Positions 4,319-28,406 of a DNA stretch of 43,337 nucleotides are shown in pieces. Source of the stretch: an uncultured Muribaculaceae bacterium (GTDB taxonomy: Bacteria > Bacillota_I > Bacilli_A > RF39 > UBA660). The stretch's first letter is position 1; the number at the start of each line of letters is the position of its first letter. The translations under genes and the position numbers were made by a program. The notes beneath the pieces are model-generated. The model did not search any database. It saw nothing but the letters and a program-made list of their open reading frames with translations, and had not been told where the DNA came from. The DNA lies in contig CAZVIQ010000002.1 in the NCBI GenBank assembly GCA_964626795.1, forward strand, positions 1-43,337. The letters are read 5' to 3'.

Positions 4319-4342
4319 GGCTTACTTTTGTAAGTCTTTTTT
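4317..4342 (+). terminator. Short hairpin plus T-run between lemA and the DUF2207 gene (partial terminator or attenuator)
   Basis: AAGGCTTAC (4317-4325) pairs with GTAAGTCTT (4330-4338) over 9 bp including one G-U. Loop is TTTT, followed by a T-run to 4342. Confidence 0.4.
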
Positions 4343-4356
4343 AGGAAGGGGATATT

Positions 4357-12155: not shown

Positions 12156-12246
12156 TGGCGGAGTAGGAGAGATTTGAACTCTCGCGCCAGTTTCCCGACC
12201 TACACCCTTAGCAGGGGCGCCTCTTCAGCCTCTTGAGTACTACTCC
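12156..12246 (-). tRNA. tRNA-Ser (anticodon GCU), class II with long variable arm and encoded CCA
   Basis: The reverse complement reads GGAGTAGTACTCAAGAGGCTGAAGAGGCGCCCCTGCTAAGGGTGTAGGTCGGGAAACTGGCGCGAGAGTTCAAATCTCTCCTACTCCGCCA. The acceptor stem GGAGTAG/CTACTCC pairs. The anticodon loop is CT-GCT-AA. A T-loop GTTCAAATC and a long extra arm are present. Confidence 0.9.
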
Positions 12247-12272
12247 AAATTTATCTGCTAATTAATAATACA

Positions 12273-12614
12273 TTATTTTTGAATATTAGTCAAGTTTAGA
12301 GTGACACCTATATTAATACAATTTTCTTCTATAAATTCACTTGGAAGTTCTAAAACATAATAAACTTTTTTATTTTTAACTATAATTCTATTAGGCTTTA
12401 AATTGTTAAAAACATAAAGAACTTTAAAATTTTTATCCATCATGATAACATCAATATTTTGAAAACAAAAGAAAGTATGTATTGAACTTACTTTTTTAAA
12501 AAGTATTCCATAATCAATTTTTTTTCTTTTAAACATAATTCCAATTAATCTTTTAAAAAAATTGTCTGCAGTAACAGTTTTAATTTTTATATTCTTTGTC
12601 ATATCAAACCACAT
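12273..12614 (-). CDS. DUF192-like small protein
   Basis: 113 aa (109 aa if ATG 12602 is the start). The pattern ADNFFKRLIGIMFKR...GILFKK..SIHTFFCFQNIDVIMMDKNFKV...YVLELPSEF matches my recollection of the DUF192/COG1430 consensus (GLM..., hMknt.hpLDhhFhD, vLEl.aG). Confidence 0.55.
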   Translation of the reverse strand: MWFDMTKNIKIKTVTADNFFKRLIGIMFKRKKIDYGILFKKVSSIHTFFCFQNIDVIMMDKNFKVLYVFNNLKPNRIIVKNKKVYYVLELPSEFIEENCINIGVTLNLTNIQK

Positions 12615-12635
12615 AATAAGTATAACATATTTAAT

Positions 12636-12664
12636 TTGACAAAAATATAAAATTCATTTAGAAT
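12636..12664 (+). promoter_or_regulatory. Candidate sigma-A promoter of the pilus operon
   Basis: TTGACA (12636-12641), a 17-nt spacer, then TAGAAT (12659-12664). RBS AGGTGAG follows at 12671-12677. Confidence 0.55.
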
Positions 12665-12681
12665 TATACTAGGTGAGACGT

Positions 12682-12879
12682 ATGTTAAATAGGTTAAATA
12701 AAAAAGGTCAAGCTTTAACAGAATACATTCTTATCATTGCATTAGTAAGTGTTATAGCAATCGCGATTGTAAACGTTTTTGGAGGATATCTTAAAGATGC
12801 CATGACAAAAACAAGTTGCAATTTAGTGAATCAATCTTATGTTGAGGGAGAAAAGCCGGGTGAAGGTTATTGTGAATAA
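12682..12879 (+). CDS. flp: Flp/Fap-family type IVb prepilin
   Basis: 65 aa from ATG 12682 (the track starts at GTG 12673). Short basic leader MLNRLNKKG, then the Flp motif QALTEYILIIALVSVIAIAIV (G at -1, E at +5, Y at +6). Confidence 0.8.
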   Translation: MLNRLNKKGQALTEYILIIALVSVIAIAIVNVFGGYLKDAMTKTSCNLVNQSYVEGEKPGEGYCE

Positions 12880-13336
12880 GAAAGCAGGTTTTACGCTGGT
12901 AGAGCTTTTAGCAACAATCGCACTTTTATCAATATTGATAGTTTTTGTTGTCCCAAAAATATACAGTTATATTCAAACAGGTACAAATAAAGCTTTAGAA
13001 CTTCAGGAGAAGAATGTAGAGGATGCTGCTAAAATATTTTTAGAAGATTATTGTAAATCACCTATAACTTTAGCTCATGCTACTCAGTGTACTAAACTTT
13101 TAAATAAAGAAATTACTTCCAGTGGTTTTGCAACTTTTGAAGGTATATTAAAATTAAGCTTTTTAATTGAAAAAGATTATATTGATCCAGTTACATTTAA
13201 AAAGAATTCTTGTGATGATACCAGCTATATAGAGTTTAATACTGATGATACAATTAAAGCATATTTAAAATGTGGTGATATAAAAACTTCAGACTGGAAT
13301 CAGGAAAAATTAAATGATGCAAAACCTAATGAATAA
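12872..13336 (+). CDS. Type IV pilin/pseudopilin with a class III (prepilin-type N-terminal cleavage/methylation) signal
   Basis: (V)NKKAG|FTLVELLATIALLSILIVFVVP is a canonical GFTLxE motif. GTG 12872 is in frame and overlaps the flp stop (12877-12879). The track's upstream start at 12839 would lie inside flp. The globular part has four Cys. Confidence 0.8.
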   Translation: MNKKAGFTLVELLATIALLSILIVFVVPKIYSYIQTGTNKALELQEKNVEDAAKIFLEDYCKSPITLAHATQCTKLLNKEITSSGFATFEGILKLSFLIEKDYIDPVTFKKNSCDDTSYIEFNTDDTIKAYLKCGDIKTSDWNQEKLNDAKPNE

Positions 13337-13691
13337 AAAAAAGAAAGGACAAGCGCTGGTAGAATTTATTATTATATTACCAATTTTCTTATTCTTAATA
13401 TTTGGATTAATAGATTTTGGAAAGATACTTTATATTAAAAATGAACTTACTGTTTTATTACCCGAAGTTAAAGAAATGTATAAGGATAAAACTTATGAAG
13501 AAATTGAAAAGTATGTTAGAAAGAATAATAAGGATAATAAGATTAGTATAACGACTAAAGATGAGAATGTTACTTTTGAAATTTATAGAAATTTAAATAT
13601 TGTAACACCGGGGCTTAATCTTATAATTGGTAATCCGTATAAAGTTACTGCTTCGCTTATTATTAATAATGAGAGTACTGAAAAAGAATGA
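13314..13691 (+). CDS. tadE: TadE-like pseudopilin
   Basis: MNKKKKG|QALVEFIIILPIFLFLIFGLIDFG matches the TadE N-terminal signature. The start is either 13314 or 13329. It overlaps the preceding pilin gene. Confidence 0.75.
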   Translation: MMQNLMNKKKKGQALVEFIIILPIFLFLIFGLIDFGKILYIKNELTVLLPEVKEMYKDKTYEEIEKYVRKNNKDNKISITTKDENVTFEIYRNLNIVTPGLNLIIGNPYKVTASLIINNESTEKE

Positions 13692-13980
13692 TGGTCAAAT
13701 CTTAGTGATGTTTCTTATGCTTCTTCCTGTTATGATAATGCTTATAATGTTGGTAGTAGATACAGGCTTCATGATTAATAGAAATCTTAGTATAAAAAGT
13801 GTTATAAATAATGAAGAAGATATTGCTAAAATAGAAGTGGAACTTGGTAGAAATAAAATAAATTATGATAGTCTGGAAAAGAAAGATGATTGCATAATAG
13901 TAAATTCAACTGTAAAGGCTCTTTTTGGAAAGATAATTGGAAAAAAAGAATATAAAATAGTTGTAAAAAACTGTAAATAA
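13669..13980 (+). CDS. TadG/TadF-like (Tad_N type) pilus assembly protein
   Basis: From ATG 13669: MRVLKKNDGQILVMFLMLLPVMIMLIMLVVDTG. This fits the G-x-hydrophobic...LLP...VDxG pattern of TadE/G-like N-termini. It overlaps the tadE end. The track start at 13627 is probably too far upstream. Confidence 0.6.
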   Translation: MRVLKKNDGQILVMFLMLLPVMIMLIMLVVDTGFMINRNLSIKSVINNEEDIAKIEVELGRNKINYDSLEKKDDCIIVNSTVKALFGKIIGKKEYKIVVKNCK

Positions 13981-13991
13981 AGAGGGATGTT

Positions 13992-14762
13992 ATGAAAGGG
14001 ATAAAAGGAAAAAGTCTTTGTATCTATTCTCCTAAAGGTGGAATAGGTAAAACTATTTTGGTTTCTAATCTAGGTGCAGTGGCAAGTAAGATGAATAAAA
14101 AAGTACTGCTTCTGGATTTTGATTTATATTTTGGGTGTTTATCCATGTTCATAAATGAAAATATTACCAAGACAGTATTTAATCTAGCAGATGATTTAAA
14201 TAATAATAGATATAAGTCAATTAATGATTATATATATAAGTATAATGATAACATTGATATTCTTTGTGCACCCAAAGATCCTAGACAGGGTTCTAAAATA
14301 AGTGCCAAATATATTGATATAATTCTTGACAGAACTACAAGTATATATGATTTAGTAATAATAGACACCTATGCAAGTTCTGATGAAATAACAGTAAGTA
14401 TTTTAGATGTCATAGATAATATTCTTTTTGTAGTTGATAATGATCCTTTTACTATGAAAAACATGAGAAATATACTTAGTATTTTTAAAGATAATGAATT
14501 TGATAATTATAAAGTTTTATTAAATAATTCACTTAGTTCAAAAATATATTATTTTTCAAATGCAGAAATTAGAAAAGTAATTGATGCAAATATTGATTAT
14601 ACATTAAGTAATAATTTTTTTATGAAAGATATATCTTCAGCTATATATGATTCTACTATACCTATACTTTATAAAAATAATTATAGGAAATATAGAAATG
14701 ATATAAATAACATGAAACTTATAATTAAAGATGTAATTGAGGTTGAAGATGAAAAAGAATAG
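13992..14762 (+). CDS. tadZ: TadZ/CpaE-like ParA/MinD-family ATPase (no N-terminal receiver-like domain)
   Basis: 256 aa with a deviant Walker A, YSPKGGIGKTILVSNLG, then LLLDFD. It sits immediately upstream of tadA. Confidence 0.75.
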   Translation: MKGIKGKSLCIYSPKGGIGKTILVSNLGAVASKMNKKVLLLDFDLYFGCLSMFINENITKTVFNLADDLNNNRYKSINDYIYKYNDNIDILCAPKDPRQGSKISAKYIDIILDRTTSIYDLVIIDTYASSDEITVSILDVIDNILFVVDNDPFTMKNMRNILSIFKDNEFDNYKVLLNNSLSSKIYYFSNAEIRKVIDANIDYTLSNNFFMKDISSAIYDSTIPILYKNNYRKYRNDINNMKLIIKDVIEVEDEKE

Positions 14763-16086
14763 TTTAAAAGATGTTTTTGAAATTCAGAATAAAGATGCTT
14801 GTCCTACTATTGTTTCAGATTATGAAGTATTTAAAGATAAGGTTCTTTTGGATGAACTTAGAACAAAAATAATTTCTAATTTAATAGATAACGAACTTCC
14901 TGTTGGGATTTCTTTAATCGATTTTATAAATAATGAAATAGATAGAAGTTTAGAAGGATATGATTTATCAAATCTTGAAAGAAGTCATATTTTTAATTTA
15001 ATAGATAATGAAATTACAGGATATGGACCTTTAACAGAACTCTTAAAAGATAAAAACATTAGTGAAATAATGGTAAATGCACCAGATGAGATTTATATTG
15101 AAATAGATGGTTCTCTTGTAAAAGATTCAAGTATTTCATTTATTAATAATGAACATATAATTAGAACAATACAGAGAATGATCCAGCCTTTAGGAAGAAC
15201 AATAGATGCGACTAATCCTATGGTTGACTCAAGACTTAAAGATGGTTCAAGAATTAATGCTGTTATACCTCCTCTTAGTGTAAGAGGCCCTGTACTAACT
15301 ATAAGAAAGTTTAAAGCTTCTTTAGAAACAGCTGATGATTTACTTAGAATGGGTACTTTTACTCCATATATGGCAAGATTTTTAGAAGCAGCAGTTCAGG
15401 CTAAACTTAATATTATAATATCTGGAGGTACAGGAAGTGGTAAAACTACACTTCTTAATATCTTAAGTTCGTTTATAAATAATAATGAAAGAATTATTAC
15501 AATAGAAGATGCAGCAGAACTTAAACTTCGTCAAAGTCATGTTATTTCTTTAGAAACCAGAGTAATGAATTATGACTCTGATGGTGAAGTAACAATTAGA
15601 GATTTAGTGATAAATTCACTTCGTATGAGACCAGATAGAATTATAGTAGGTGAAGTTCGTGGTAAAGAAGCGTTTGATATGCTTCAAGCAATGAATACAG
15701 GTCATGACGGCTCTCTTTCAACACTTCATGCAAATGGAGTAATGGATGCTTTAAATAGACTTGAGACAATGGTACTGATGAGTGGTATAGAAATTCCAAT
15801 TAAAGCAATAAGAGAATATATATTTAATGCTATAGATATTGTTATAAATATTGAAAGATTAAGTGATGGAAGAAGAAAAATTCTAAAGATAAGTGAACTT
15901 AAATCAATGGAAAATGGGGATATAATTCTTGAAGATATCTTTGCGTTTACTGAAAAAGGTCTTACAAAAAATGGAGAAGTAGATGGAGAATTTATACTTT
16001 ATGAAAAAGTTCCTAAAGTTTTAAAGAAAATTAGAAGTAAAGGAATAAATTCTATAGATTTTATGTTTGAAAAAGTAGAGAGGTAA
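14749..16086 (+). CDS. tadA: TadA/CpaF secretion ATPase
   Basis: Walker A GGTGSGKTT, Asp box ITIEDAAEL, Walker B RPDRIIVGEVRG and His box NTGHDGSLSTLHAN, plus ISEIMVN. I prefer ATG 14749 (RBS GAGG) over the track's TTG at 14737. Confidence 0.9.
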   Translation: MKKNSLKDVFEIQNKDACPTIVSDYEVFKDKVLLDELRTKIISNLIDNELPVGISLIDFINNEIDRSLEGYDLSNLERSHIFNLIDNEITGYGPLTELLKDKNISEIMVNAPDEIYIEIDGSLVKDSSISFINNEHIIRTIQRMIQPLGRTIDATNPMVDSRLKDGSRINAVIPPLSVRGPVLTIRKFKASLETADDLLRMGTFTPYMARFLEAAVQAKLNIIISGGTGSGKTTLLNILSSFINNNERIITIEDAAELKLRQSHVISLETRVMNYDSDGEVTIRDLVINSLRMRPDRIIVGEVRGKEAFDMLQAMNTGHDGSLSTLHANGVMDALNRLETMVLMSGIEIPIKAIREYIFNAIDIVINIERLSDGRRKILKISELKSMENGDIILEDIFAFTEKGLTKNGEVDGEFILYEKVPKVLKKIRSKGINSIDFMFEKVER

Positions 16087-16088
16087 TT

Positions 16089-17099
16089 ATGGATAAGATA
16101 AGAATACTTGAAATATTAATTACTCAGATGATAATTGTTTTATCATTAGTTTTTATTATTATCTCACTTCTTATCGTTCGTAAAAATAATAAAATAATAA
16201 AGAAATTTAATAATTATACTGTTAAATCAATAAAAAGGGCTAATGTATCTTTTTTTGATAAGCTTATTTATATGATGGAATATATAATATCTAAGAATGC
16301 TGAAGTATTAAGAAAACTTAGATTTATGACTAGATATGCTAAAAAGTATGATAAACATTTAACTTTTGAAGAACTTAAGAATAAAGATGGTTTTTATATA
16401 CTTTCTACTAAGTTTATGATGACTTTTTTTATAGTACTTTTGTATTTTTTAAATCAGGTATTCAGATATAAAGATATAACTTTTGGAGGTATATTTTTAT
16501 CTGGAATACTTGGATATTTTATAACTGATATATTTCTTTTACTTAATTATATGAAGAAGAAAAAAGAGATTGAAGAAGATCTTTTAAAAGCAATCATGGT
16601 AATGAACAGTGCATTTAAAAGTGGTAGAAGTTTAGTTCAGGCAATTGAAATCGTTAAAGATGAACTTACTGGGGCGATAAGTGATGAATTTAAGAAAATA
16701 TATCTTGATATTTCTTATGGGCTTAGTGTTGAAACAGTATTTGAAAGATTTTATCAAAGAATAAAGCTTGAGGAAGCAAAATATATTTCAAGTAGTTTAA
16801 CTTTACTTAATCAAACAGGAGGAAATATTACTAAAGTATTTGAATCAATAGAAAAAGAATTTTATAGTAGAAAAAAACTTGATAATGAATTAAAAACTAT
16901 GACTGCTTCAAGTGTTTTTGTTTTTAGAACGTTATTATTTATGCCTTTTATAGTGTGTCTTGTAATATTTATATTAAATAATAATTATTTTGATCCTCTT
17001 TTTAACTCTGGATTAGGAAAAATAATTCTTGCTTTAATAGGAATACTTTATTTAATATATATAATAATTATTAAAAGAATAATAAAGGTGGAATTATAA
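16089..17099 (+). CDS. tadB: TadB-like platform protein (T2SS F-domain)
   Basis: 336 aa. Polytopic, with a cytoplasmic helical domain (LLKAIMVMNSAFKSGRSLVQAIE...) flanked by TM segments. Its position follows tadA. Confidence 0.75.
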   Translation: MDKIRILEILITQMIIVLSLVFIIISLLIVRKNNKIIKKFNNYTVKSIKRANVSFFDKLIYMMEYIISKNAEVLRKLRFMTRYAKKYDKHLTFEELKNKDGFYILSTKFMMTFFIVLLYFLNQVFRYKDITFGGIFLSGILGYFITDIFLLLNYMKKKKEIEEDLLKAIMVMNSAFKSGRSLVQAIEIVKDELTGAISDEFKKIYLDISYGLSVETVFERFYQRIKLEEAKYISSSLTLLNQTGGNITKVFESIEKEFYSRKKLDNELKTMTASSVFVFRTLLFMPFIVCLVIFILNNNYFDPLFNSGLGKIILALIGILYLIYIIIIKRIIKVEL

Positions 17100-17797
17100 T
17101 GAAAAATGAGATTTTAATTGAAAAAATATATTCTGCCAAGAGTATAGAAAAAATAAAAAAGAAAGTTAAACTTTTAGGTATTAATTCAAAAATAAATGCA
17201 ATAGAATTTCTCAATTTAAGACTTATGCTATGTTTCTTAGTTTTTATATCGCTTCTTTATTTTTCAGAGTTACCTTTTATATATGCACCTTTAGTTACAA
17301 TTATTATTTATATTGCTTTTGAATATATTATAATTGACTACCAAATAAAAAATAGAATAAGAAAACTAGATAAAGATGCATTATTCTTTTTTGAAATATT
17401 AGCTTTATCACTTGAAGTAGGAAGAAATTTAAAGGGTGCATTAGATCTTACCGTTAAAAGTATTAAAAATGACTTATCTGATGAGTTTGGGATAGTAATA
17501 GAAGAAGTAAATTATGGTAAAAGTTTAAATGAAGCACTTGTAAAAATGAAAGAAAGAATACCAAGTGAAACTGTAAATAATGTAATACTAAATATTACTC
17601 AATCAAATACTTTTGGAACTTCAATTATAGATACACTTCATCAGCAGGTAGCGTATATCAGAGATAAAAAATTCTTAGAAACAAAAGCTATAATTAATAA
17701 GATGCCAATTAAAATAAGTGTTATATCTGTAGTACTGTTTCTTCCAATTATGCTTTTACTTTTACTTGGACCTATACTTATAGATTTTATGAAGTAA
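17099..17797 (+). CDS. tadC: TadC-like platform protein (T2SS F-domain)
   Basis: 232 aa with the same TM - helical domain (FFEILALSLEVGRNLKGALD...) - TM architecture. ATGA overlap with tadB. Confidence 0.7.
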   Translation: MKNEILIEKIYSAKSIEKIKKKVKLLGINSKINAIEFLNLRLMLCFLVFISLLYFSELPFIYAPLVTIIIYIAFEYIIIDYQIKNRIRKLDKDALFFFEILALSLEVGRNLKGALDLTVKSIKNDLSDEFGIVIEEVNYGKSLNEALVKMKERIPSETVNNVILNITQSNTFGTSIIDTLHQQVAYIRDKKFLETKAIINKMPIKISVISVVLFLPIMLLLLLGPILIDFMK

Positions 17798-17851
17798 AAA
17801 AAACATTAAACGACAAAATTTATTCTTGAAAAGAAAAGATAAAAACGATAA

Positions 17852-17989
17852 AATTCATCGGTTAACCTAAACTACATCAACGTGGGCAGTGACGTGCATC
17901 TGGCAGTTTCTCTTAAATCTTGTATTACTGTAACTGGAGGAACCGGTATTAAAGAAAATCCTTATATAATATCTAATTCTACTTGTTAA
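17852..17989 (+). pseudogene. 3' remnant of a paralogue of the 472-aa protein encoded at 25366-26784
   Basis: An open frame of 45 codons without a start codon or RBS. It translates as ...LNYINVGSDVHLAVSLKSCITVTGGTGIKENPYIISNSTC*. By hand alignment, 16 of the last 28 residues are identical to ...SVSLKSCIVVTSGDGTLSSPYILSDKAC* (26698-26781). The DNA string CAGTTTCTCTTAAATC is shared. Confidence 0.7.
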
Positions 17990-18081
17990 TCAATTTATTC
18001 GTAAAATTCTTGTAAAACGAAACAAATTAATTTTTGTTTTTTTTATTGTTTTAGTATATAATAAGAACGGAGAGTGAATAA

Positions 18082-18192
18082 ATGAAAGATAAAGGAAGAA
18101 CAATTGTAATTTTTGCTATTTTACTATTACTACTTGGGCTTTTATATATATTATATTTTCATACGGGTTATTTCGATATTTTGAAAAAATAA
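18082..18192 (+). CDS. Small hydrophobic protein (36 aa), not in the ORF track
   Basis: MKDKGRTIVIFAILLLLLGLLYILYFHTGYFDILKK. RBS GGAGAG lies about 8 nt upstream, and a TATAAT-like box lies at about 18056. Single TM segment. Confidence 0.45.
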   Translation: MKDKGRTIVIFAILLLLLGLLYILYFHTGYFDILKK

Positions 18193-18227
18193 ATTTCTAG
18201 GGATTTTTGGTTAGTTAGGAGTAGAAG

Positions 18228-18926
18228 ATGATAAAATTCGGCAATAAATCGTTAGAAAGTTTTATACAGTTTAAATTAAATAAAACAAATAATAATTTTA
18301 CTGAAAAAGAGTTGAAGAGCATTAAGACTTTAGACTTGAATCCTATAGATATTGATTCTAATTATAGTAGAATCAATCTTGAAGATTTAAAATATTTTCC
18401 CAATTTAAAATATCTGACTATATCAAATATGCATGTTGATATAGCTTCTTTTGCGTTTATATTAAGATTAGAACATTTAGTAAGTCTAACTTTTATTAAT
18501 TCCACATTTCAGGATTTGTCAATTTTGTCTAATTTTAAACTAGAACATATTGGTTTTATTAATTCAAATCTTGAAGATTTAGGGATTATAAATAGAGTAA
18601 AGAGTTTAAAAGAGTTAACTTTAATTAATTATAAAGATATAGATTTATCATATTTTATAAATTTAAATTTAATTTCATTGGAATTATCAAACAGTACAGT
18701 TAAGAATGAGAATGGTATTGGTGAACTTAGTAATTTAAGTAAACTTATTGTATGTAATACTAATATCATGAATTTAAACTTTTTAAACAAACTTAAGAAA
18801 TTAAAAGAACTTTATATTACAAAGACACAATATATTGCTAATAAAATGATTATAAATAATTTAGTTAAAAATAAAGTTTCAGTATACATTGATAATAATA
18901 TATTAATTAATAAAGGAGAATTATAA
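18228..18926 (+). CDS. Leucine-rich repeat protein without a signal peptide
   Basis: 232 aa with about seven repeats of roughly 22 residues (LxxLxxLxLxNxxIxDLxxL type), e.g. LKYFPNLKYLTISNMHV and LSNLSKLIVCNTNIMNLNFLNKLKKLKELYI. RBS AGGAG. Confidence 0.75.
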   Translation: MIKFGNKSLESFIQFKLNKTNNNFTEKELKSIKTLDLNPIDIDSNYSRINLEDLKYFPNLKYLTISNMHVDIASFAFILRLEHLVSLTFINSTFQDLSILSNFKLEHIGFINSNLEDLGIINRVKSLKELTLINYKDIDLSYFINLNLISLELSNSTVKNENGIGELSNLSKLIVCNTNIMNLNFLNKLKKLKELYITKTQYIANKMIINNLVKNKVSVYIDNNILINKGEL

Positions 18927-20419
18927 TGATATTTTCAAATAAAATAATTGATCTTAAATATTTTAATCCTACTCTTATTAATTATATAAATGATACTGTT
19001 AAAAACAATGCTTTTTTAGGTACAACTATTGTTTTTGAAAGTACAAAAGGTTTAACGTCAGAAATGGTTGAACTTATTAATAAGTCTTCTAAGCTTAAAT
19101 TTAGAATATCTGGTGCTTTTGATTCCAAAAGAATAGAATCAAAAAAAATAAGTAAAAAACAGATTGAAGAAGAATATATCGAACCAGTTACTTATTCTAG
19201 AGAAGAACTTTTTAATATTTTAATAGTTATTGAAAGAATGGAAGAGAGTATTCCAGAAGAAATTTCAGATTTAGAAAAAGCGTTATATATATATAATAAT
19301 TTAAATAAATATTTTAACTATAAATATCATAAGGATACTGTTTCTAATAAAGAAGCAAGTTCATTTAGAGGACTTGTAACTAAAAACATAAATGCTAAAG
19401 GTATTGCACTTATTTTTCAAGAATTAATGCGCAGACAGAGCATTGAAGCTCATTATGTTGAAGGGAAACTCAAAAGTGAAGAATTTGATATTCCTCATTT
19501 TTGGAATATAATTCAGATTGATGGTAAATTTATTCCTTTAGATTTATATCTTGAAATAGAAGAATCAAGAAAAGGGTATTTTGGAGAATTATTGTATTTT
19601 GGAGAAATAAATTCGTTTTCTGAGACACATGTTCCAAGTAATACAGAGATTATACAGTTCTATAACAATTCTCTTTTTGCAATTTCAAAACAAGATTTAA
19701 TAGACTCGTTTAAAAACATATTTACTAATAAAGAGTATAAATTTAAAATAAATGCTTTTAAAAGAAGTAATGGAACTGAAGGAGTGTTCTCTTTTGTAGA
19801 AAGTGAACAGTGTTTAGAAAAAGAATATCAAAAAATAATTTATTTTGATGTAGTAGGCGGCAATACAATAGAAAACCCTTCAATTTTATATCTTGATGCT
19901 AATATAGAATTTATAGAAGAAGAACTTTTTATAGATAAAGTCAAGGTTGATGAAGCTGGATATAAAATCTTATATGAGAAGGTACTGGATCCTACCAATA
20001 TAAGAACAGGGATAACGCTTAACAATGGTTATATAGGAACACTAAAAAATGAAGATAATATTTTAAAGTTCTCTTATGATAGTAAAGTAAAAGATAATAT
20101 TAAAAACTTTCAAAAACTTCTTGTAAGAAGTGATAATACTACATTTGTTTTAGAACAGTTAAATACTACTTTAGAAGGTGAAATAGTAAGTACCAATAAA
20201 TATAAAATATACGAATTATTATATAATGAAGAATACTATGTATCTGAAAAAATTATATATACTGAGAAAGATATAATTGGAAATAATAGTGCAGAATTTA
20301 TTAATAATATATTGTCTGTTAAAAATATTAATAATGCTGTACTTTATAAAAGTGGTTATTTGGGATATTTTAATCCGGCAGAAATAAAAATAATAGATAA
20401 AAAAGAAAGCGAACAGTAA
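18926..20419 (+). CDS. Transglutaminase-like-fold protein apparently lacking the catalytic Cys, plus an unknown C-terminal half
   Basis: 497 aa, with an ATGA overlap to the LRR gene. The segment AKGIALIFQELMRRQSIEAHYVEG...PHFWNIIQIDGKFIPLDL matches the G-x-C...G-I-P-A-R-x-V-x-G...H-x-W-N...D core pattern, but Ala sits where the nucleophile Cys is expected. Confidence 0.5.
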   Translation: MIFSNKIIDLKYFNPTLINYINDTVKNNAFLGTTIVFESTKGLTSEMVELINKSSKLKFRISGAFDSKRIESKKISKKQIEEEYIEPVTYSREELFNILIVIERMEESIPEEISDLEKALYIYNNLNKYFNYKYHKDTVSNKEASSFRGLVTKNINAKGIALIFQELMRRQSIEAHYVEGKLKSEEFDIPHFWNIIQIDGKFIPLDLYLEIEESRKGYFGELLYFGEINSFSETHVPSNTEIIQFYNNSLFAISKQDLIDSFKNIFTNKEYKFKINAFKRSNGTEGVFSFVESEQCLEKEYQKIIYFDVVGGNTIENPSILYLDANIEFIEEELFIDKVKVDEAGYKILYEKVLDPTNIRTGITLNNGYIGTLKNEDNILKFSYDSKVKDNIKNFQKLLVRSDNTTFVLEQLNTTLEGEIVSTNKYKIYELLYNEEYYVSEKIIYTEKDIIGNNSAEFINNILSVKNINNAVLYKSGYLGYFNPAEIKIIDKKESEQ

Positions 20420-20445
20420 AGAGTTTTTATAACTCTTTTTTATTT
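20419..20445 (+). terminator. Rho-independent terminator
   Basis: AAGAGTT / AACTCTT stem with a 5-nt loop, followed by TTTTaTTTT. Confidence 0.6.
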
Positions 20446-20548
20446 TAATAACTACTTATTATCTTAAAATAATCGGTTTTTAAGAATTTTATAATAAAAA
20501 AAAAGCGTTTTGTAATTTTTTGTCATATATATATAGGTAGGAGGGTGT

Positions 20549-22276
20549 ATGAGCTTTATAGATAATGAAATACTTAATAAAATAATAACATCAAATGATA
20601 TAGTAGATATAATTGGATCATATTTATCTTTGATTCCAAAAGGCAAAAATTATTTTTGTGTATGTCCTTTTCATGATGATCATTCTCCAAGTATGTCAGT
20701 TAGTCCTCAAAAACAGATATTTAGATGTTTTGTATGCGGAGAAACAGGGAATTCGATTTCATTTTTAATGAGATATCTAAATATATCTTTTGTCGAAGCT
20801 GTTAAAATATTATCGGACAAGTCTGGTATTCATCTTGATATTAATGAAACTAAGAAAACAGATAGCAAATATGATAAATATTACGATATTAATGCTATGG
20901 CGAATGCATTTTTTAAAAATAACTTGAATACTAAAGAAGGAACAGAAGCAAGAAAATATCTTGATAGTAGAAATATTACCAAAGAATTAATAGATGAATT
21001 TGATATAGGAGTAAGTTTAAATGAAGGATTAGGTAAAGCCTTATCTAAGAAATATAGTGTAAAAGAACTGGTAGATCTTGATCTGGTTTATGAACAGGGA
21101 AATGTATTAAAAGATATATTTTATAACAGACTTATTTTTCCAATAAAAGACTCTGAAGGTAATGTAGTGGCTTTCAGTGGAAGAATATATAAGACTTCAG
21201 CAGATTCCAAATATAGAAACACAAGCGAAACAATAATATTTAAAAAAGGAAAAATAATATATAATTTTTCTAAAGCTAAAGAATATATTAGAAAAGCTAA
21301 AGAAGTAATAATATGTGAAGGTTTTATGGATACAATAAGACTGCATAGTATAGGTATAAAAAATACAGTTGCGCTCATGGGATCAAGTATGACTAAAGAA
21401 CAACTTGAAATAATTAAAAATCTTAAAGTAAATGTTGTACTTAATTTAGATCAGGATGACGCGGGAAAACTGGGTACTTATAATATAGGCGAAGAAATGC
21501 TTGAAATAGGAATTAATCCTAAAGTTATAGTGTTTAGTAAGTCAAAAGATTCAGATGATCTAATAACCAAGTTTGGTAAGGATGAGTTTATTACTGCATA
21601 TAGAAATAAAGTAGATTTCATAGATTTTAAACTTGACTTTCTTAAAAAGAACAAGAATCTTGATAATGCTGAAGAACTGTCAAAATATATAAATGAAGCA
21701 CTTGAGAGTATAAACAATCTTAATGATTCTGTACTCCAGGAAATTAAAATTTCACAACTTTCTGAAAAATATAACATTAATAAAAGTACACTTTTAAGTA
21801 AGATAGTTAAAAAAGAAAAAATTAATGTTATTAAAAAAGAAGTTCCAAAATTAAAATTAGATAAATATTTAATCAGTGAAATAAGAATAATATATTTAAT
21901 GCTTAACTATAGTGATGTAATTAAAATATATGAAAAAAATTTAGGATATCTAAATAATAGGAAACTTAATAGTTTTGCTAATGAAATAATCTCATATAAA
22001 CTTAAATATAAAATATTTGATTATAAAGATTTTATAACTTCCATATTGGATAATGAAGAACTTAATAATACACTTAAATTTATTATGTCATATCAGCATA
22101 TGGAAGATTATACAGATGAAGAATTAGAAGATTATATAAATACTGTTAAATTATATTCTGTAAAGAAAGAAACAGAAAAACTTACAAAAAGAATGAATGA
22201 AAGTATTGATATAAATGAAAAAAAAGAATTATTAGAAAAAATAGTAAATATGAAAAAGGATGTGTTAGAATGGTAA
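20549..22276 (+). CDS. dnaG: DNA primase
   Basis: 575 aa. Zinc finger [13 protein letters not shown]...[11 protein letters not shown] and a TOPRIM region ([16 protein letters not shown]). Confidence 0.95.
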
Positions 22277-23358
22277 ACGAAATAAAATCATTTGAAGAAA
22301 GAACAAATGAATTAATAGAACAGGGTAAAAAAGATGGCTTTATTACTTATGAGCAGATAGCTAAAAAATTTATTGATCTTGAAATAGACAGTACTTCACT
22401 AGATGAACTGTATAATATTTTAACTGCTAATAATATAGAGGTTCTTCCAGAAGGTGAAGATGAAGGCTCAGCTGTAGTGCCAAGTGCAGATATAGTTATT
22501 GATATACCTGATGAATCTAAAGATATGAGTGTTAATGATAATGTGAGAATGTACTTAAAGGAAATAGGTAAAATATCTTTGTTATCTTTAGAAGAAGAAC
22601 AGGAACTTTCAAAAAGAGTAGCGGCTGGTGATGAAGAAGCTAAAAATATACTTGCAGAGTCTAACTTAAGACTTGTAGTTTCTATTGCAAAAAGATATGT
22701 AGGAAGAGGACTGTTATTTCTTGATTTAATTCAAGAAGGAAATATTGGTCTTATGAAAGCAGTAGAAAAATTTGACTATGATAAAGGTTATAAATTCAGT
22801 ACTTATGCGACATGGTGGATTAGACAAGCTATAACAAGAGCACTTGCAGATCAAGCGAGAACAATCAGAGTACCAGTTCATATGGTTGAGACAATAAATA
22901 AAATGGTAAGAATAGAAAGACAAATGACTCTTGAACTTAATCGTGAACCTACAAATGAAGAACTTGCAAAGAAAATGGGACTTTCAGTAGAAAAAGTAAT
23001 TGAAATAAGAAAAATTAGTCAGGATCCTGTATCACTTGAAACACCTATTGGTGAAGAAGATGATTCACATTTAGGTGATTTTCTTGCAGATGAGAGAACT
23101 ATGTCTCCTGAAGAATTTACTACTTATGAAATATTAAAAGAAGAGCTTAAAGATGTGCTTCTTACTCTAACTAAAAGAGAAGAAGAAGTACTTGAATTAC
23201 GTTTTGGCCTATTTGATGGAAGTTGTCACACTCTTGAAGAAGTAGGTAAAAAATTTGGTGTAACAAGAGAAAGAATCAGACAAATAGAAGCAAAAGCACT
23301 TAGAAAATTAAGACATCCTTCAAGAGCTAAAAAATTAAAGGATTTCTTAATTGAGTAA
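22270..23358 (+). CDS. sigA: Primary sigma factor (sigma-70/SigA)
   Basis: Region 2 motifs ([28 protein letters not shown]) and region 4.2 ([20 protein letters not shown]). Overlaps the dnaG stop. Confidence 0.95.
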
Positions 23359-23965
23359 AAGAATTAATGCAATACTAAATAATATTGATAAAGAAGATAT
23401 AGTACTTGATATAGGTTGTGATATGGCACATATAGGAATAAATCTTGCAAAGAAAGGAATAATTTCTTATGCTGGAGATATAAAAGAAAATATAATTAGT
23501 AGAGCTAAAGAAAATGCAAAAAAATTAAATCTTGATAAATTTATAAATTTTAAAACTTCAGATGGATTGAAAGAATTTGTTAATATATCTGAGATTAATA
23601 CTCTTGTTTTAGCGGGCATGGGGACATATACTATTTTAAATATTTTAAAGGAATCGGAACGTAAGTATAATAAAATTATAACAATATCTAATAATGACCA
23701 TTTATTACTTAGAACTGAAATGATAAAATTGGGATACAAAATAAAATTAGAAGAAATAATTTTTGAAAAAAATAAATATTATAATTTAATTGTATTTATT
23801 CTTGGAAAATGTAATTATAATGAAAAAGAATTGAATTTAGGATATAATCATCAAAATCAAGAATTATTAATACAAAGAAATAGAAATTTAATAAATAAAT
23901 ATAAAAATTTATCTGAAGAAGGGAAAGAAAAATTTAAAAATATACTCCAAATGTTAGAAAAATAA
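23351..23965 (+). CDS. trmK: tRNA (adenine22-N1)-methyltransferase TrmK-like
   Basis: 204 aa with a TTG start. [13 protein letters not shown]-binding motif and the conserved position downstream of sigA. Confidence 0.65.
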
Positions 23966-24011
23966 TAGTTGGAGAAATAAATATAATTATTTAATAGAAA
24001 GGAAAAGCAGT

Positions 24012-25292
24012 ATGTTTATCGATGAAGTAATAATTAAAGTAAAAGCTGGAAATGGAGGAGATGGATGTTCTTCTTTTAGGCATGAAAAATATGTTGAGCT
24101 TGGTGGTCCAGATGGTGGTAACGGTGGAAAAGGTGGAAACATTATATTTAAAGCAGATAAAGGTCTTAAAACTCTTATTGATTTAAAATATATGAAAACT
24201 GTTAAAGCAGATAAAGGTGGCAATGGAAGTGGTAATGATAAAACTGGTAGGAATGCAGAAGATACTTTTATAAAAGTACCAGTGGGAACTACCATTAAAG
24301 ATTCGGAAACTGGACTTATTATATGTGATCTTATAGAAGATAACGAAGAGCATATTATAGCAAAAGGTGGAAAAGGTGGTAAAGGTAATGCTGCTTTTAA
24401 AACAAATAAAAATAAAGCACCTACTATAAGTGAGTACGGTGAAGAAGGTGAAGAAAAAACTTTACAGTGTGAACTTAAACTTTTAGCAGATGTAGGACTT
24501 GTAGGATTTCCTTCAGTTGGTAAAAGTAGTTTAATAAGTATTATAAGTGCATCCAAACCAAAAATTGCTGATTATCATTTTACTACACTTTCTCCTAATT
24601 TAGGAGTTGTAAAAGTTGAAGATTATAGTTTTGTAGTTGCTGATCTTCCAGGACTTATTGAAGGTGCTTCAGAAGGTATAGGACTAGGTGATAGATTTTT
24701 AAAACATACACTTAGAACTAAAGTTATTTGTCATTTAATAGATATGAGTTCTTTAGAAGGAAGAAATCCAATTGAAGATTATAAGATAATTAGAAGAGAA
24801 CTAGAAAGTTATAGTGATAAACTTGCTAAAAAGACTGAAATAATTGTTGCAAATAAAATGGATTTACCAAATTCAAAAGATAATTTAGAATTATTTAAAA
24901 AAGAGTTTCCAGATTTAACTGTAATACCAATAAGTGCGGTGACTAAAGAAAATATTAATACACTTCTTTATAAAATTAAAGAAACACTTATAAAAGAAGA
25001 AGAAACTTCAGTTTATGAAGAAAATGAATTTGAAGATTATGTACTTTATGAATTTAAAAATAATAAGCCTTACACTATTATCAAAGAAGGTAATAGTTGG
25101 CTATTAGAAGGTGATGAATTACACAAACTACTTAAAAAAACCAGATTTAATAGTGATGAAGCGACTCTTAGATTTGCTAAAAAACTAAAAACTATGGGAA
25201 TTGATGATGAACTTCGCAAACTTGGCGCTAAAGAAGGAGACACAGTTAAAATACTTGATAAGGAATTTGAATATGAAGATAGATTTTATTAG
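24012..25292 (+). CDS. obg: GTPase Obg/CgtA
   Basis: MFIDEVIIKVKAGNGGDGCSSFRHEKY Gly-rich Obg fold, G-domain motifs GFPSVGKSS / DLPG / NKMD, and a C-terminal extension domain. Confidence 0.95.
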   Translation: MFIDEVIIKVKAGNGGDGCSSFRHEKYVELGGPDGGNGGKGGNIIFKADKGLKTLIDLKYMKTVKADKGGNGSGNDKTGRNAEDTFIKVPVGTTIKDSETGLIICDLIEDNEEHIIAKGGKGGKGNAAFKTNKNKAPTISEYGEEGEEKTLQCELKLLADVGLVGFPSVGKSSLISIISASKPKIADYHFTTLSPNLGVVKVEDYSFVVADLPGLIEGASEGIGLGDRFLKHTLRTKVICHLIDMSSLEGRNPIEDYKIIRRELESYSDKLAKKTEIIVANKMDLPNSKDNLELFKKEFPDLTVIPISAVTKENINTLLYKIKETLIKEEETSVYEENEFEDYVLYEFKNNKPYTIIKEGNSWLLEGDELHKLLKKTRFNSDEATLRFAKKLKTMGIDDELRKLGAKEGDTVKILDKEFEYEDRFY

Positions 25293-25310
25293 AATCTAAT
25301 TTAAAAAATC

Positions 25311-25339
25311 TTGAATAATGTTTCAATAAATGGTAAAAT
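25311..25339 (+). promoter_or_regulatory. Candidate promoter of the 472-aa gene
   Basis: TTGAAT (25311-25316), a 17-nt spacer, then an extended -10 TGgTAAAAT (25331-25339). Confidence 0.5.
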
Positions 25340-25365
25340 CCCTTTAAGGATAGAGTGATTTTATT

Positions 25366-26784
25366 ATGAATAAGAAAGCTATTATAATTAGTATATTAAT
25401 TACTTTACTATTAATGAGTTCATTAATAGTTTTTAGATTTGATAATAAAAAAGAAATATATATAACAAAATCCAGTGAAATAAAGAATACTAAACTAAGC
25501 ATGATAAAAATAGAAGAAGGAATATCAACAGTAATAAAAGCAGTACCGACAAGTGGCAACTGGTATATGGATTATAATTGTGAAAATGACAATACAAAAT
25601 TATTCTGGGATGATGACAGCAAAAAAATCTTGGTAAAAGAAGCTGGAGATACAGAATGCACAGTAATATTTGAAAAGACAAAATCAGCAATAAATATAGT
25701 ATCAATGTATGTAGATGATGTATATGTAGGAGAGCTAGAAGAAAGTAAATCATATAGGTTATTATCATATGAATGTGCAAACGGAGAAACAGTAATGTGG
25801 AACGGAATAGAAAGTGAAGTTTCTGTAAAACCACTAAGACAGAACACACATTGTAAATTATATTTTGAAGAAGCACCATATTTATATAATAAAATACTAT
25901 TAGACAATGTTGTACAAAGTGATTCAAGTATAAACTTCGCTAATTCATCATCAGACACAAATGGAAAAGGATTATACTATACAGAAAATGAACTAACATA
26001 TGGAGAGGATAATACAAGAATCTACTATTTTAGAGGAAGAGTAGAAAACAACTGGGCAAGCTTTGGAGGATACTTATGGAGAATTGTGCGTACAACAAGT
26101 GAAAATGGAATAAAGTTAGTATATTCAGGAAATGGACAGGGAACTACTAGTGGACATATAAAATCAGTTGTGTTTAACACAACTAATAATCGATATCGTA
26201 TGGGATATACTTATAACTTAACTGGTTACAGTGGAAATCAAACAGATAGTTTAGTTAAAACAGAAATAGATAGTTGGTATGAAAGTAATTTAAGTTCTTA
26301 TTCAAATTATTTAAGTGAAACTGCTGTATATTGCTCTGATAGAGATGGTTCTTCATTTCCTGTGAGAGTTCGACTTTATGCAAATAAAAGACCATCATTT
26401 GCATGTCCGAATGCAAATGAAAGTAGATATACAGCAAGTATAACAACAGGAAATGGATACTTACAAAAACCAATTGCCTTACTAACTGCAGATGAGGTAC
26501 ATTATTCAGGAGTCATTTATGGAACAAAAAGTTTAAATTCATATATTATGGATAATGTAACAGAGATATCTAATTGGTGGCTTATATCACCTTTTAGTCA
26601 AGATGTTAGAGGGGGAGGCTGGTGGTGTCTTTTCTCAGTACGTCCTGGCGGAGATTTATACGATGATGCTCATGTAAATTCTGGTGCTGTTCGTCCCTCA
26701 GTTTCTCTTAAATCATGTATAGTGGTAACAAGTGGAGATGGAACTTTATCTAGTCCATATATATTAAGTGATAAAGCTTGCTAG
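25366..26784 (+). CDS. Membrane-anchored extracytoplasmic protein of unknown function, with two Cys-bracketed modules and a conserved C-terminal domain
   Basis: 472 aa with an N-terminal TM anchor. Two modules of about 40 aa (aa 65-104 and 128-168) follow the pattern Y.C.N...W....VK....C..FE. Later motifs are NNWASFGGYLWRIVRTTSENGIKLVY, WWLISPFS and AVRPSVSLKSCIVVTSGDGTLSSPYIL. Confidence 0.6.
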   Translation: MNKKAIIISILITLLLMSSLIVFRFDNKKEIYITKSSEIKNTKLSMIKIEEGISTVIKAVPTSGNWYMDYNCENDNTKLFWDDDSKKILVKEAGDTECTVIFEKTKSAINIVSMYVDDVYVGELEESKSYRLLSYECANGETVMWNGIESEVSVKPLRQNTHCKLYFEEAPYLYNKILLDNVVQSDSSINFANSSSDTNGKGLYYTENELTYGEDNTRIYYFRGRVENNWASFGGYLWRIVRTTSENGIKLVYSGNGQGTTSGHIKSVVFNTTNNRYRMGYTYNLTGYSGNQTDSLVKTEIDSWYESNLSSYSNYLSETAVYCSDRDGSSFPVRVRLYANKRPSFACPNANESRYTASITTGNGYLQKPIALLTADEVHYSGVIYGTKSLNSYIMDNVTEISNWWLISPFSQDVRGGGWWCLFSVRPGGDLYDDAHVNSGAVRPSVSLKSCIVVTSGDGTLSSPYILSDKAC

Positions 26785-26792
26785 AAATACAT

Positions 26793-26826
26793 AACTCTAT
26801 ATTTTACTTTTAAATATAGAGTTTTT
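26793..26826 (+). terminator. Rho-independent terminator
   Basis: Perfect 11-bp stem AACTCTATATT (26793-26803) / AATATAGAGTT (26813-26823) with a 9-nt loop and a T-run. Confidence 0.7.
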
Positions 26827-26860
26827 ATATTATAATAAAATAAGCAGTAAAGGAGTATCT

Positions 26861-27385
26861 ATGATAACTAAATTTGTACCAGATAAATATCAAAAAAGTG
26901 TTTATACTATTAATTATAAAAAATTAAAACGTGAAGGCTTTAAATGTATTATATTTGATTTAGATAATACTTTAGTGCCTATTAATGTAATTGATGCAAA
27001 TAAAAGACTTAAGAATCTTATAAATGATGTTAAAATGATTGGTTTTAAAGTCATTATTATGTCTAACAGTCCTAAATCAAGAGTGATGGCATTTCAAAAA
27101 TCTTTAGTTGTAGATTGTGTTCCTTTTGCTTTAAAACCTCGAAAAGAAAAATATGAAAAAATACTTAAAATATATAATTTAAAAGAAAAAGAAGTATGTT
27201 CTGTAGGTGATCAACTTTTTACTGATGTTTTAGGTGCTAATAGAGTTGGAATAACAAGTATTCTAGTAAATGCTATGAGTTCAAATGATCATCATATTAA
27301 ATTTATTTATAAATTTTTAGAAAAAGCAATATGGAGAGTTTTAAGTAAAAAAGATTTACTTATAAAGGGGAAATATTATGATTAA
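26861..27385 (+). CDS. yqeG: YqeG-family HAD phosphatase
   Basis: 174 aa. HAD motif I IIFDLDNTLV and motif SVGDQLFTDVLGANRVG. Followed by yqeH. Confidence 0.85.
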   Translation: MITKFVPDKYQKSVYTINYKKLKREGFKCIIFDLDNTLVPINVIDANKRLKNLINDVKMIGFKVIIMSNSPKSRVMAFQKSLVVDCVPFALKPRKEKYEKILKIYNLKEKEVCSVGDQLFTDVLGANRVGITSILVNAMSSNDHHIKFIYKFLEKAIWRVLSKKDLLIKGKYYD

Positions 27386-28376
27386 AAAATGTATAGGTTG
27401 TGGTTCATTATTACAAAGCACTGTTGCTAATAAAAGTGGATATGTAAAGTCAAATAAACTTAATACTGCTGAATATTGTGAAAGATGTTTTAAAATTAAA
27501 AATTATGGTGACTGTGATATTGTAAGTGAAAAAAAAGATTTTAAGAAAATAATTGATAATATAAACAGTACTAATAATGCTATCGTTTATTTAGTAGATG
27601 TTTTAAATATAACTAAAGAAGAAGTAGAATATATCAATAAATTTAATAAAGATGTTTTTATTCTGCTTACTAAGAGAGATATATTACCTAAAAGCATTAA
27701 AGATAAAAAACTAATTGAATATTTTAAAAACAATTATTATAAAAATGAGAATATTATGTGCGTAAGTAGTTTTAAAAAATATAATATTGATAAATTTTTA
27801 AATCTATTAAAAGAAAAAAATATTTCTACTATACACGTAGTAGGTTTTACTAATGCTGGAAAAAGCACTTTTATAAATACGCTTCTTTCAAGTATTAATG
27901 AAAAACCATTTATAACAACAAGTGCGATTCCTAATACAACAAGTGACTTTATAAATATAAAACTAGGAGATATTACTATTATAGATACACCAGGATTTGT
28001 AACTAAAAACTCTATCTATAATCATTTGAATATAAATGAAGTATTAAAAATAATTCCTAAAAAAGAAATAAAGGTAAAGACTTATCAAATTAAACCTAAT
28101 GAATCGGTTATTGTAGATAATATATTAAGAATAGATCATCTTGGTGATAAAACTAATAGTTTTAGTTTTTATATGAATAATAATCTTAATTTTGAAAGGA
28201 TTAAAATTAAAACTAACGATAAGTTAAAAATGCTTCCAAAGAAAACTATACATATAAAAGGTAATGAAGATATTGTAATTAATGGTCTTGGTTTCATTAA
28301 AATAGTTAAAGAGACAGATGTTGTAATATATACACTTGATGAAAGTCTTATAAGTGTAAGAGAAAAGATGATATAG
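27378..28376 (+). CDS. yqeH: Ribosome biogenesis GTPase YqeH (circularly permuted)
   Basis: N-terminal zinc ribbon CIGCG...YCERCF. Permuted G motifs: TKRD before VVGFTNAGKSTFIN and DTPG. Confidence 0.85.
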   Translation: MIKKCIGCGSLLQSTVANKSGYVKSNKLNTAEYCERCFKIKNYGDCDIVSEKKDFKKIIDNINSTNNAIVYLVDVLNITKEEVEYINKFNKDVFILLTKRDILPKSIKDKKLIEYFKNNYYKNENIMCVSSFKKYNIDKFLNLLKEKNISTIHVVGFTNAGKSTFINTLLSSINEKPFITTSAIPNTTSDFINIKLGDITIIDTPGFVTKNSIYNHLNINEVLKIIPKKEIKVKTYQIKPNESVIVDNILRIDHLGDKTNSFSFYMNNNLNFERIKIKTNDKLKMLPKKTIHIKGNEDIVINGLGFIKIVKETDVVIYTLDESLISVREKMI

Positions 28377-28406
28377 TAATTAATTAAAAAAACAGAGGTG
28401 TGATAT

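Follow-up and report, generated by a model that had tools for sequence, protein, structure and literature searches.

The window, i.e., the whole 43,337-nt stretch of DNA analyzed here, carries a Tad-like pilus locus whose last gene, tadC, has its stop codon at 17797, and the next sizeable open reading frame (ORF) starts at 18228. The question raised by this locus is what the sequence behind tadC is, from which gene it was derived, and whether that gene has anything to do with the pilus. An earlier note regarded a start-less open frame at 17852-17989 as the remnant of a paralogue of the 472-aa protein encoded at 25366-26784, and proposed that this paralogue was once located directly downstream of tadC, which would link its family genetically to the Tad locus. 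The frame is called the stub below, and the features of the window discussed in the text are as follows.

12673..17797, plus strand: Tad-like pilus locus (Pfam matches)
17099..17797, plus strand: tadC, 232 aa, last gene of the locus (PF00482, E 3.5e-13)
17798..17854, plus strand: putative remainder of the promoter region upstream of the lost family gene (promoter scan, spacer homology with the contig L099)
17826..17831 and 17849..17854, plus strand: promoter-like site, -35 TTGAAA and -10 TAAAAT separated by a 17-nt spacer (scan score 10/12)
17854..17855, no strand: putative deletion or recombination junction (end of the alignment between L099 and the window; GC jump from 17.5% to 47%)
17855..17910, plus strand: 3' half of the hypervariable-region equivalent (NSSVNLNYINVGSDVHLAVS), at the position equivalent to the variable region of P0004 in L008, the target of a diversity-generating retroelement (DGR)
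17911..17989, plus strand: conserved C-terminal tail (LKSCITVTGGTGIKENPYIISNSTC) and TAA stop codon (matches to P0007, the 472-aa ORF, and the family HMM)
17990..18081, plus strand: spacer from the stub to the next ORF, with the RBS GGAGAG for the 36-aa ORF at 18082
25366..26784, plus strand: intact 472-aa family member, between obg and yqeG

Tad locus and its surroundings

The locus consists, in this order, of genes for a Flp-like pilin (12673), a prepilin-type pilin (12839), two TadE-like proteins, a TadZ/ParA-like ATPase, TadA/CpaF (T2SSE), TadB, and TadC, with Pfam matches to N_methyl, TadE (twice), AAA_31/CbiA, T2SSE, and T2SSF (twice). The prepilin-type pilin (12839-13333) scores above the cut-off of TIGR02532; for the Flp-like pilin, a weak precomputed match to Flp_Fap is found in orthologous loci, and a G/xxxxEY-like motif is visible. 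The set of components by which a Tad locus is recognized (TadA/CpaF, two T2SSF proteins, a TadZ-like ParA, TadE-like proteins, and a Flp-type pilin) is present, and no prepilin peptidase was seen in the window. The T2SSF-domain platform protein TadC has 660 homologues, with names including 'tight adherence protein C' and 'MAG: Bacilli bacterium', and a TadC search of genome contigs returned one irrelevant Omnitrophota locus and nothing else.

Downstream of the stub, the window contains a 36-aa single-helix ORF with a good RBS (18082-18192), a 232-aa LRR protein in which no signal peptide is obvious (18228-18926), and a 497-aa transglutaminase-core protein (18926-20419), a second one of which is encoded at 30981-31883 on the minus strand. 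In the contigs L002 and L003, an assembly gap or a deletion falls on the start of the 36-aa ORF. In L019, L104, and L105, whose TadC proteins are 60-63% identical to that of the window, nusB-xseA-xseB(-spoIVB), located at 34776-37648 in the window, directly follow the position after tadC. Compared with these loci, ~17 kb of the window (18082-34775) were apparently inserted or translocated in this lineage, a block comprising the 36-aa ORF, the LRR and transglutaminase-like genes, dnaG, rpoD, trmK, obg, the 472-aa gene, yqeG, yqeH, mutL, miaA, and others. Elsewhere in the window, a 634-aa DUF2207 membrane protein with a Gly-rich C-terminal tail (...SGSGFGGGFSSGGGFGGGGGGGRGF) is encoded at 4357-6261, and the sporulation genes SpoIIP (32274) and SpoIVB (36665) are those of a spore-former-type Bacilli MAG with a GC content of 25.5%.

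Homology of the stub

In frame 1, the sequence is open from 17852 to the TAA codon at 17987-17989, and its translation is NSSVNLNYINVGSDVHLAVSLKSCITVTGGTGIKENPYIISNSTC. The stub ends in ...AVSLKSCITVTGGTGIKENPYIISNSTC and the 472-aa ORF in ...VRPSVSLKSCIVVTSGDGTLSSPYILSDKAC, each followed by the stop codon. When the last 28 residues of both were compared with their ends anchored, 16 were identical, exactly the count that had been made by hand, and the maximum in 10^6 residue shuffles was 11. When the 45-aa frame was searched by blastp against every six-frame ORF in the window, the C-terminus of 25366-26784 was the sole match, with E values of 1.1e-7 in short mode and 1.6e-7 in standard mode (runner-up E 0.04). 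The DNA string reported to be common to the two genes is real and slightly longer than claimed, as 21 of 22 nt agree between 17904-17925 and 26699-26720 (E 1.5e-4 within the window). In the HMM of the C-terminal domain of the family, the stub matches the final 40 of the 328 positions (289-328; E 9.8e-8). The similarity, on whose significance the earlier proposal depended, is accordingly significant in shuffles, blastp, and HMM alike, and the candidate explanation that it is due to chance was rejected on the E values and the 10^6 shuffles.

Matches were obtained with several family members at E values from 1e-7 to 3e-13, and every one of them is anchored at the stop codon. The homology is detectable from about 17867-17870 onward and extends over ~120 nt, which corresponds to the last ~40 codons and the stop codon, compared with ~470-720 codons in intact family genes. 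No other family fragment was found in or around the spacer, elsewhere in the window, or upstream of the Tad locus, the last of which was checked in case the locus had split a family gene, and the three frames of 17798-17875 gave nothing significant as traces of a lost N-terminus. The homology is thus partial and the rest of the gene is absent, as is characteristic of a gene remnant. Judged from its sequence, the stub is a true and statistically secure pseudogene remnant of a family of predicted surface proteins.

Decay of the stub

The statement that the frame 17852-17989 has neither start codon nor RBS was borne out: it contains no ATG and no Shine-Dalgarno sequence, and neither of its two in-frame GTG codons (17882 and 17894) is preceded by an RBS. 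Within the VRP motif of the family, R443 is invariant and P444 near-invariant in the family alignment, and the stub reads VHL, i.e., His-Leu, at this position. In L002 and L003, a +1 A insertion within the conserved-tail part truncates the frame before the conserved PY...C, where both contigs are very low-coverage assemblies, probably of one sample, and the insertion, in a homopolymer run, could have arisen in assembly. These two contigs and L004 encode a TadC protein identical to that of the window, and in L004 the spacer is identical as well. The remaining 420 nt of L099, which represents a further strain of this species, do not contain the stub. Translation signals are therefore missing and constraint is relaxed.

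An independent small gene, which would encode a peptide of ~35 aa from the GTG at 17882, or a chance origin of the resemblance can hardly be maintained against these results. The 45-codon open frame with its two in-frame GTG codons might be read in this way; however, the stop-anchored matches to several family members and the 16 of 28 identities against a shuffle maximum of 11 speak for homology, and the frame has no RBS and is frameshifted (L002/L003) or absent (L099) in other strains. The stub is a non-coding 3' end, an ordinary pseudogene without an expected function, and it would be untranslated and drift neutrally. As in ordinary internal-deletion pseudogenes, the sequence is truncated and start-less, has lost invariant residues, is polymorphic among strains, and is located in a variable inter-operon slot. 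It differs from them in being unusually legible, because intact paralogues exist and a promoter-like upstream region of the family type lies across the junction.

Regarding the sequence around the stub, the GC content of 17855-17910 is 47% in a window of 25.5% GC and belongs to the top 0.6% of 57-nt windows. A terminator scan of 17500-18400 found no terminators, an AT-rich hairpin at ~18002-18053 is no better than shuffles (z = -0.53), and 17990-18081 has no similarity to the regions downstream of paralogues. No Rfam families were found in the whole window.

Probable parent gene and its loss

The best match of the stub is P0007, a protein of 720 aa ending in ...SNSTC, with 20 of 28 identical residues (71%; E 3e-13). 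At the DNA level, the stub and the 3' end of P0007 share 72 of 87 nt, the last 20 nt being identical, compared with 56 of 87 nt for the 472-aa gene. Since the match to P0007 is better in both protein (20/28 vs 16/28) and DNA (72/87 vs 56/87), the parent of the stub was not the 472-aa gene, and the view that the lost gene was a close paralogue of the 472-aa protein has to be given up in favor of a different, P0007-like subtype.

The 57 nt between the tadC stop codon and the junction were compared with the region from -80 to -27 of P0007. The score was 35, with a maximum of 30 in 2000 shuffles; in a 1.06-Mb BLAST, on the other hand, the match was not outstanding, and equally good chance matches were found. 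The similarity is significant only as a targeted test, and AT-rich promoters have common consensus features, so that the resemblance taken alone is suggestive and supportive.

The comparison with L099 locates the junction. The alignment of L099 with the window has a length of 5647 nt and an identity of 99.26% over 12210-17854, and it is lost exactly at 17854/17855, which corresponds to 5647/5648 in L099. The L099 spacer is homologous to the 57 nt of the window (45/57, E 4e-8) and anchored at the tadC stop codon; the two spacers are only ~79% identical, compared with 99.3% for the tad genes. The divergence at 17854/17855 points to a recombination or replacement event that began at the stop codon of tadC. 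Beyond this point, the L099 spacer runs into a 5' leader of the family type, which agrees with the regions just upstream of the start codons of P0003 (29/33, E 6.5e-5) and P0007 (45/61, E 8e-4). No intact family gene was found in L099 within the 420 nt beyond the divergence, where the contig ends, and the intact ancestor gene was seen in no sampled genome of this species.

The upstream regions of family genes have a common layout, consisting of a TTGAAT-like -35 box, an extended -10 box TG(A/G)TAAAAT (TGATAAAAT), a short hairpin, and the ATG, which is seen at 25293-25365 of the window, 9930-10000 of L005, 9920-10000 of L007, and 5636-5670 of L099. The short inverted repeat just before the ATG, e.g., CACTCTAT/ATAGAGTG, might be a regulatory leader hairpin.

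Because the upstream region of L099 continues into a family-type leader behind tadC, the 5' end of a family gene was already present at this position, and because promoter-like sequence of the family type lies to the left of the junction and the family tail to its right, an internal deletion of ~2 kb is the best model. The stub is quite probably the dead 3' end of a P0007-type gene that followed tadC with its own promoter. In this model, a gene for ~720 aa with a TasA/camelysin-like N-terminal region would have been located directly downstream of tadC, although its N-terminal type is not directly readable from the ~40 surviving codons. The deletion would have fused the -10 box (17849-17854) directly to a point halfway through the hypervariable region, so that of the gene only promoter, junction, half of this region, conserved tail, and stop codon remain. 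The parent gene would have encoded a surface protein, either secreted or anchored in the membrane, with a ligand-binding C-terminal domain of the DUF6273-like, C-type-lectin-like kind. The part of the earlier claim that concerns position and loss by deletion is thus retained to the extent that a family gene was very probably there, as indicated by the promoter-like 57-nt spacer and by L099.

The same junction could have been formed in another way, in which a breakpoint in a family gene located elsewhere brought its 3' end beside tadC together with the downstream block (the 36-aa ORF, the LRR and transglutaminase-like genes, dnaG-rpoD, and so on), and the tadC slot never held a family gene. The homology of the window to its nearest sister species, L015 and L016, breaks off precisely at the stop codon of tadC; nusB-xseA, which follow the slot in L019, L104, and L105, are found ~17 kb further in the window (34776-36375), as expected if a block was inserted or moved; and P0007 itself is located between rlmH and clpP in its own genome. 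However, the 57 nt to the left of the junction resemble the promoter/upstream region of the same gene type as the stub, and the L099 upstream region leads into a family-type leader at the same position after tadC. Such a relic of rearrangement is unlikely on these grounds, while the synteny breakpoint downstream of tadC means that rearrangement could have contributed to the present arrangement. The internal deletion of a P0007-type gene is retained as the preferred explanation in the following.

Architecture of the family

For the 472-aa protein, 499 homologues were found, and the part in common is the C-terminal 63-66% (~300 residues), except in the three closest relatives. The protein consists of an N-terminal membrane anchor, a variable region, and a conserved C-terminal domain of ~300 aa, and the HMM covers residues 156-476 of the stop-to-stop frame of its ORF. 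Its N-terminus, MNKKAIIISILITLLL, has no G/FTLxE motif, and the combination that characterizes a prepilin, a class III signal peptide (G/FxxxE) with a hydrophobic helix, is not found in it; it is a plain membrane anchor, as in P0001-P0003. The N-termini of P0004, P0005, P0007, and P0008 have a hydrophobic segment ending in TYAFFS/TYAYFM, followed by a Peptidase_M73 (TasA/camelysin) region, and that of P0066 is a canonical type IV prepilin leader, MKKGFTLVELLAVI. A SipW-type signal peptide was considered for the P0007-type N-termini and rejected, as no NCBIfam match was obtained, and only the TasA/camelysin-like (Peptidase_M73) region was kept.

In a Pfam scan of 19 members, DUF6273 (PF19789) was matched in 8 at E <= 1, with a best value of 4.4e-7, Peptidase_M73 in 4, and N_methyl in 1, namely P0066. 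P0002 has a precomputed match to PF19789, and the 472-aa protein has no Pfam match at threshold. Features in common with DUF6273 are the C-terminal motif, in which (V)RPx(I/V)SLK precedes G-x-G-T...PY, and the hypervariable stretch immediately in front of the tail.

The AlphaFold2 model of the 472-aa protein, calculated from an alignment of 19 sequences, has a mean pLDDT of 43 and is too poor to use, and a profile search of PDB sequences found no relatives of the family. For this reason, the assignment of a lectin-like fold is taken solely from the DUF6273 domains of phage DGR targets, which have been modelled as C-type-lectin-like (PMC10743442). Like these targets, one family member, P0004, has an adenine-mismatch template repeat and a reverse transcriptase. 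The family differs from them in that its members are chromosomal proteins of Bacilli MAGs and not phage tail proteins, the window has no DGR machinery, and the 472-aa protein is below the Pfam thresholds. Taken together, the family may be described as multi-copy lectin-like surface proteins in which a DUF6273-like C-terminal domain is placed behind differing N-termini.

Diversity-generating retroelement in the family

A complete-looking DGR cassette is found at 763-4565 of L008 (contig ena:ERZ15185023:NODE_5275), and its parts are as follows.

763-2331: P0004 target gene, with its variable region at 2140-2249
2447-2556: template repeat (94/110 identity; 14 of 16 mismatches at template adenines)
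3439-3936 and 4143-4565: reverse transcriptase with YMDD and TSQ motifs, split into two ORFs in a low-coverage contig

Small accessory ORFs are present between the template repeat and the reverse transcriptase. A second apparent remnant right after P0004, detected as a match to the C-terminal-domain HMM, was considered as a pseudogene and rejected; it is the template repeat, as shown by the 14 of 16 mismatches located at adenines. At least one family member, P0004, is therefore a DGR target, and its variable region comprises ~37 codons directly before the conserved '(V)SLKSC...C' tail and stop codon. A local template repeat is absent for every other family gene in all fetched loci, L008 being the only one that has it.

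A search of the window for a reverse transcriptase and for repeats of the 3' regions of stub and 472-aa gene found none, so that neither of these two is recognized as a DGR target there. The equivalent of the variable region in the 472-aa gene (26578-26703) has a GC content of 46%, compared with 31% for the whole gene and 25.5% for the window, and in L008 the values are 58% for the variable region and 48% for the template. The GC-rich equivalents of the hypervariable region in the window are a hint of past adenine mutagenesis or diversification, and it is possible that a DGR elsewhere in the genome acts in trans on the 472-aa gene.

Given a DGR in the family, the stub could have been kept as a functional non-coding element, either a template-repeat-like or silent donor cassette for DGR activity or gene conversion, or a leader whose captured promoter now drives the downstream 36-aa, LRR, and transglutaminase genes. 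The template repeat of the true DGR target is a promoterless copy of the gene's 3' region, the 5' half of the stub resembles the L008 template (17/21 nt, by eye) and is unusually GC-rich, and a good promoter-like site lies directly upstream with no terminator between the stub and the next genes. On the other side, the window has no reverse transcriptase, Avd-like gene, or matching variable region; the 64% DNA identity of the stub to the family gene of the window is too low for a template/variable pair or for gene conversion; and the stub, unlike a template repeat, includes the conserved tail and the stop codon. Moreover, L099 lacks the stub and L002/L003 carry an indel in it. A retained function of this kind is very improbable, and the stub is treated below as the non-coding end of a deleted P0007-type gene.

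Family genes beside Tad loci of related genomes

TadC-containing contigs of related Bacilli MAGs, obtained from look-ups and from 80 metagenome loci, were scanned with the family HMM. Of the 70 species-level clusters, about 10 have family genes adjoining the Tad locus. Over the 70 clusters, 11 family matches are located within 3 kb of the locus (215 kb) and 3 further away (216 kb), which is an enrichment of ~3.7-fold near Tad (one-sided binomial p 0.028, not corrected for phylogeny), and all the Tad-proximal matches are on the tad strand.

Family genes that start 10-1056 nt after tadC on the same strand are found in L086, L077, L035/L036, L019, L053/L064, and L057/61/68. In three of these clusters, L086, L053/L064, and L057/61/68, the genes beside tadC are prepilin fusions; among the fusions tested, P0066 and the tadC-adjacent proteins of L064 and L086 score 23-29 bits against TIGR02532, whose cut-off is 16.3. 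Two more prepilin-like genes follow the family genes of L077 and L035/L036. In L019, where TadC is 60% identical, the family gene has an N-terminal half like those of P0005/P0007 and is probably frameshifted. Five further clusters have a family gene on the upstream side of the locus, with its end no more than ~1.5 kb away and often at the edge of a contig. The contigs of L035, L039, L050, L054, L060, and L087 end, at position 1, inside a family gene just upstream of the Tad locus. This suggests that multi-copy or hypervariable family genes break metagenome assemblies, and the adjacency counts are therefore probably underestimates.

The close subfamily with the tail SLKSC...C before the stop codon occurs singly among housekeeping genes, between obg and yqeG in the window and, elsewhere, between nrdG and ftsA, rlmH and clpP, or glyS and sepF. 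None of the five members of this subfamily that were looked up is adjacent to tadC. In L007, a second type IV filament-like cluster with a 386-aa T2SSE ATPase followed by several unannotated genes (599-5338) is located ~4.7 kb upstream of P0007, with rplI, dnaB, an M23 peptidase gene, and rlmH in between.

The position after tadC is occupied by ispD in L015 (TadC 74% identical), by a lipoprotein gene and a gene for an 802-aa prepilin with Flg_new repeats in L016 and L100 (70-71%), by a gene for a small zinc-ribbon protein in L104 (63%), and by a gene for a 402-aa membrane-anchored protein in L105 (60%), which has no match to the family HMM and is beta-helix-like by eye. The large post-tadC prepilin of L016 was considered as a protein ending in the family domain and rejected, as it has Flg_new repeats and a Cys-rich C-terminus. 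Proteins P0241-P0243 (L016 8559-10265, L100 3681-4376) represent this ~800-aa prepilin type, in which the Flg_new repeats belong to PF09479 and the Cys-rich C-terminus varies among strains. It has no relation to the DUF6273-like family and provides this Tad system with a further candidate for a modular pilin.

The orthologous Tad loci thus answer the earlier proposal in part. Family genes follow tadC in several relatives, although the three nearest sampled sister species hold unrelated genes there. A genetic link of the family to Tad is favored in part, by the ~10 of 70 adjoining clusters, whereas the enrichment is ~3.7-fold and the close subfamily is scattered. The suggested role as a pilus-associated adhesin or substrate would fit the prepilin fusions in relatives, but no prepilin signal is present in the 472-aa protein, whose N-terminus is a plain membrane anchor.

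Meaning of the tadC slot

The position after tadC would best be regarded as a variable slot that takes up surface or pilin-like genes, the DUF6273-like family being one recurrent tenant. In this low-GC Bacilli lineage, the slot beside the Tad genes would hold interchangeable surface or adhesin genes, including pilin-fused members. A functional link to the pilus is plausible for the part of the family that resembles modular pilins, and for the copies of the window itself it is at most a possibility. Modular type IV pilins carry a functional module grafted on a pilin, e.g., the vWA module of PilB and the lectin module of PilC in Streptococcus sanguinis (PMC8179133). Some family members likewise have a prepilin N-terminus (KGFTLVELL) on a ~300-aa lectin-like module, and prepilin-fused members adjoin pilus machinery genes in several relatives. 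The differences are that the machinery here is Tad-type (TadA/B/C/Z, TadE, Flp-like) and not T4aP or Com, that the 472-aa protein has a plain membrane anchor and the stub has lost its N-terminus, and that incorporation of family members into pili is a prediction.

As a product of genome decay, the stub is routine. Its worth is that of a marker pointing to a multi-copy, so far uncharacterised family of lectin-like surface proteins in MAGs of low-GC gut Bacilli, and it warns annotators that spacers beside such loci can hold relics mimicking small ORFs. The recurrence of the family at Tad edges, in some cases as a prepilin fusion, offers a hypothesis for the ligands of otherwise unstudied Tad pili and for a turnover of their binding specificity by cassette replacement, deletion, and possibly DGR mutagenesis. 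The DGR-targeted lectin-like family, the prepilin fusions beside Tad genes, and the variable slot are more interesting leads than the stub.

A further-reaching and rather doubtful interpretation is that the Tad-flanking position is a cassette slot for interchangeable adhesin modules shown on the Tad pilus, the stub being the trace of a recent loss or swap. The modules would include DGR-hypermutable lectin-like domains of the DUF6273 type, sometimes fused to prepilins, and the captured promoter may drive the LRR and transglutaminase-like genes. If this were true, there would be Tad pili with programmable, DGR-diversified tip adhesins.
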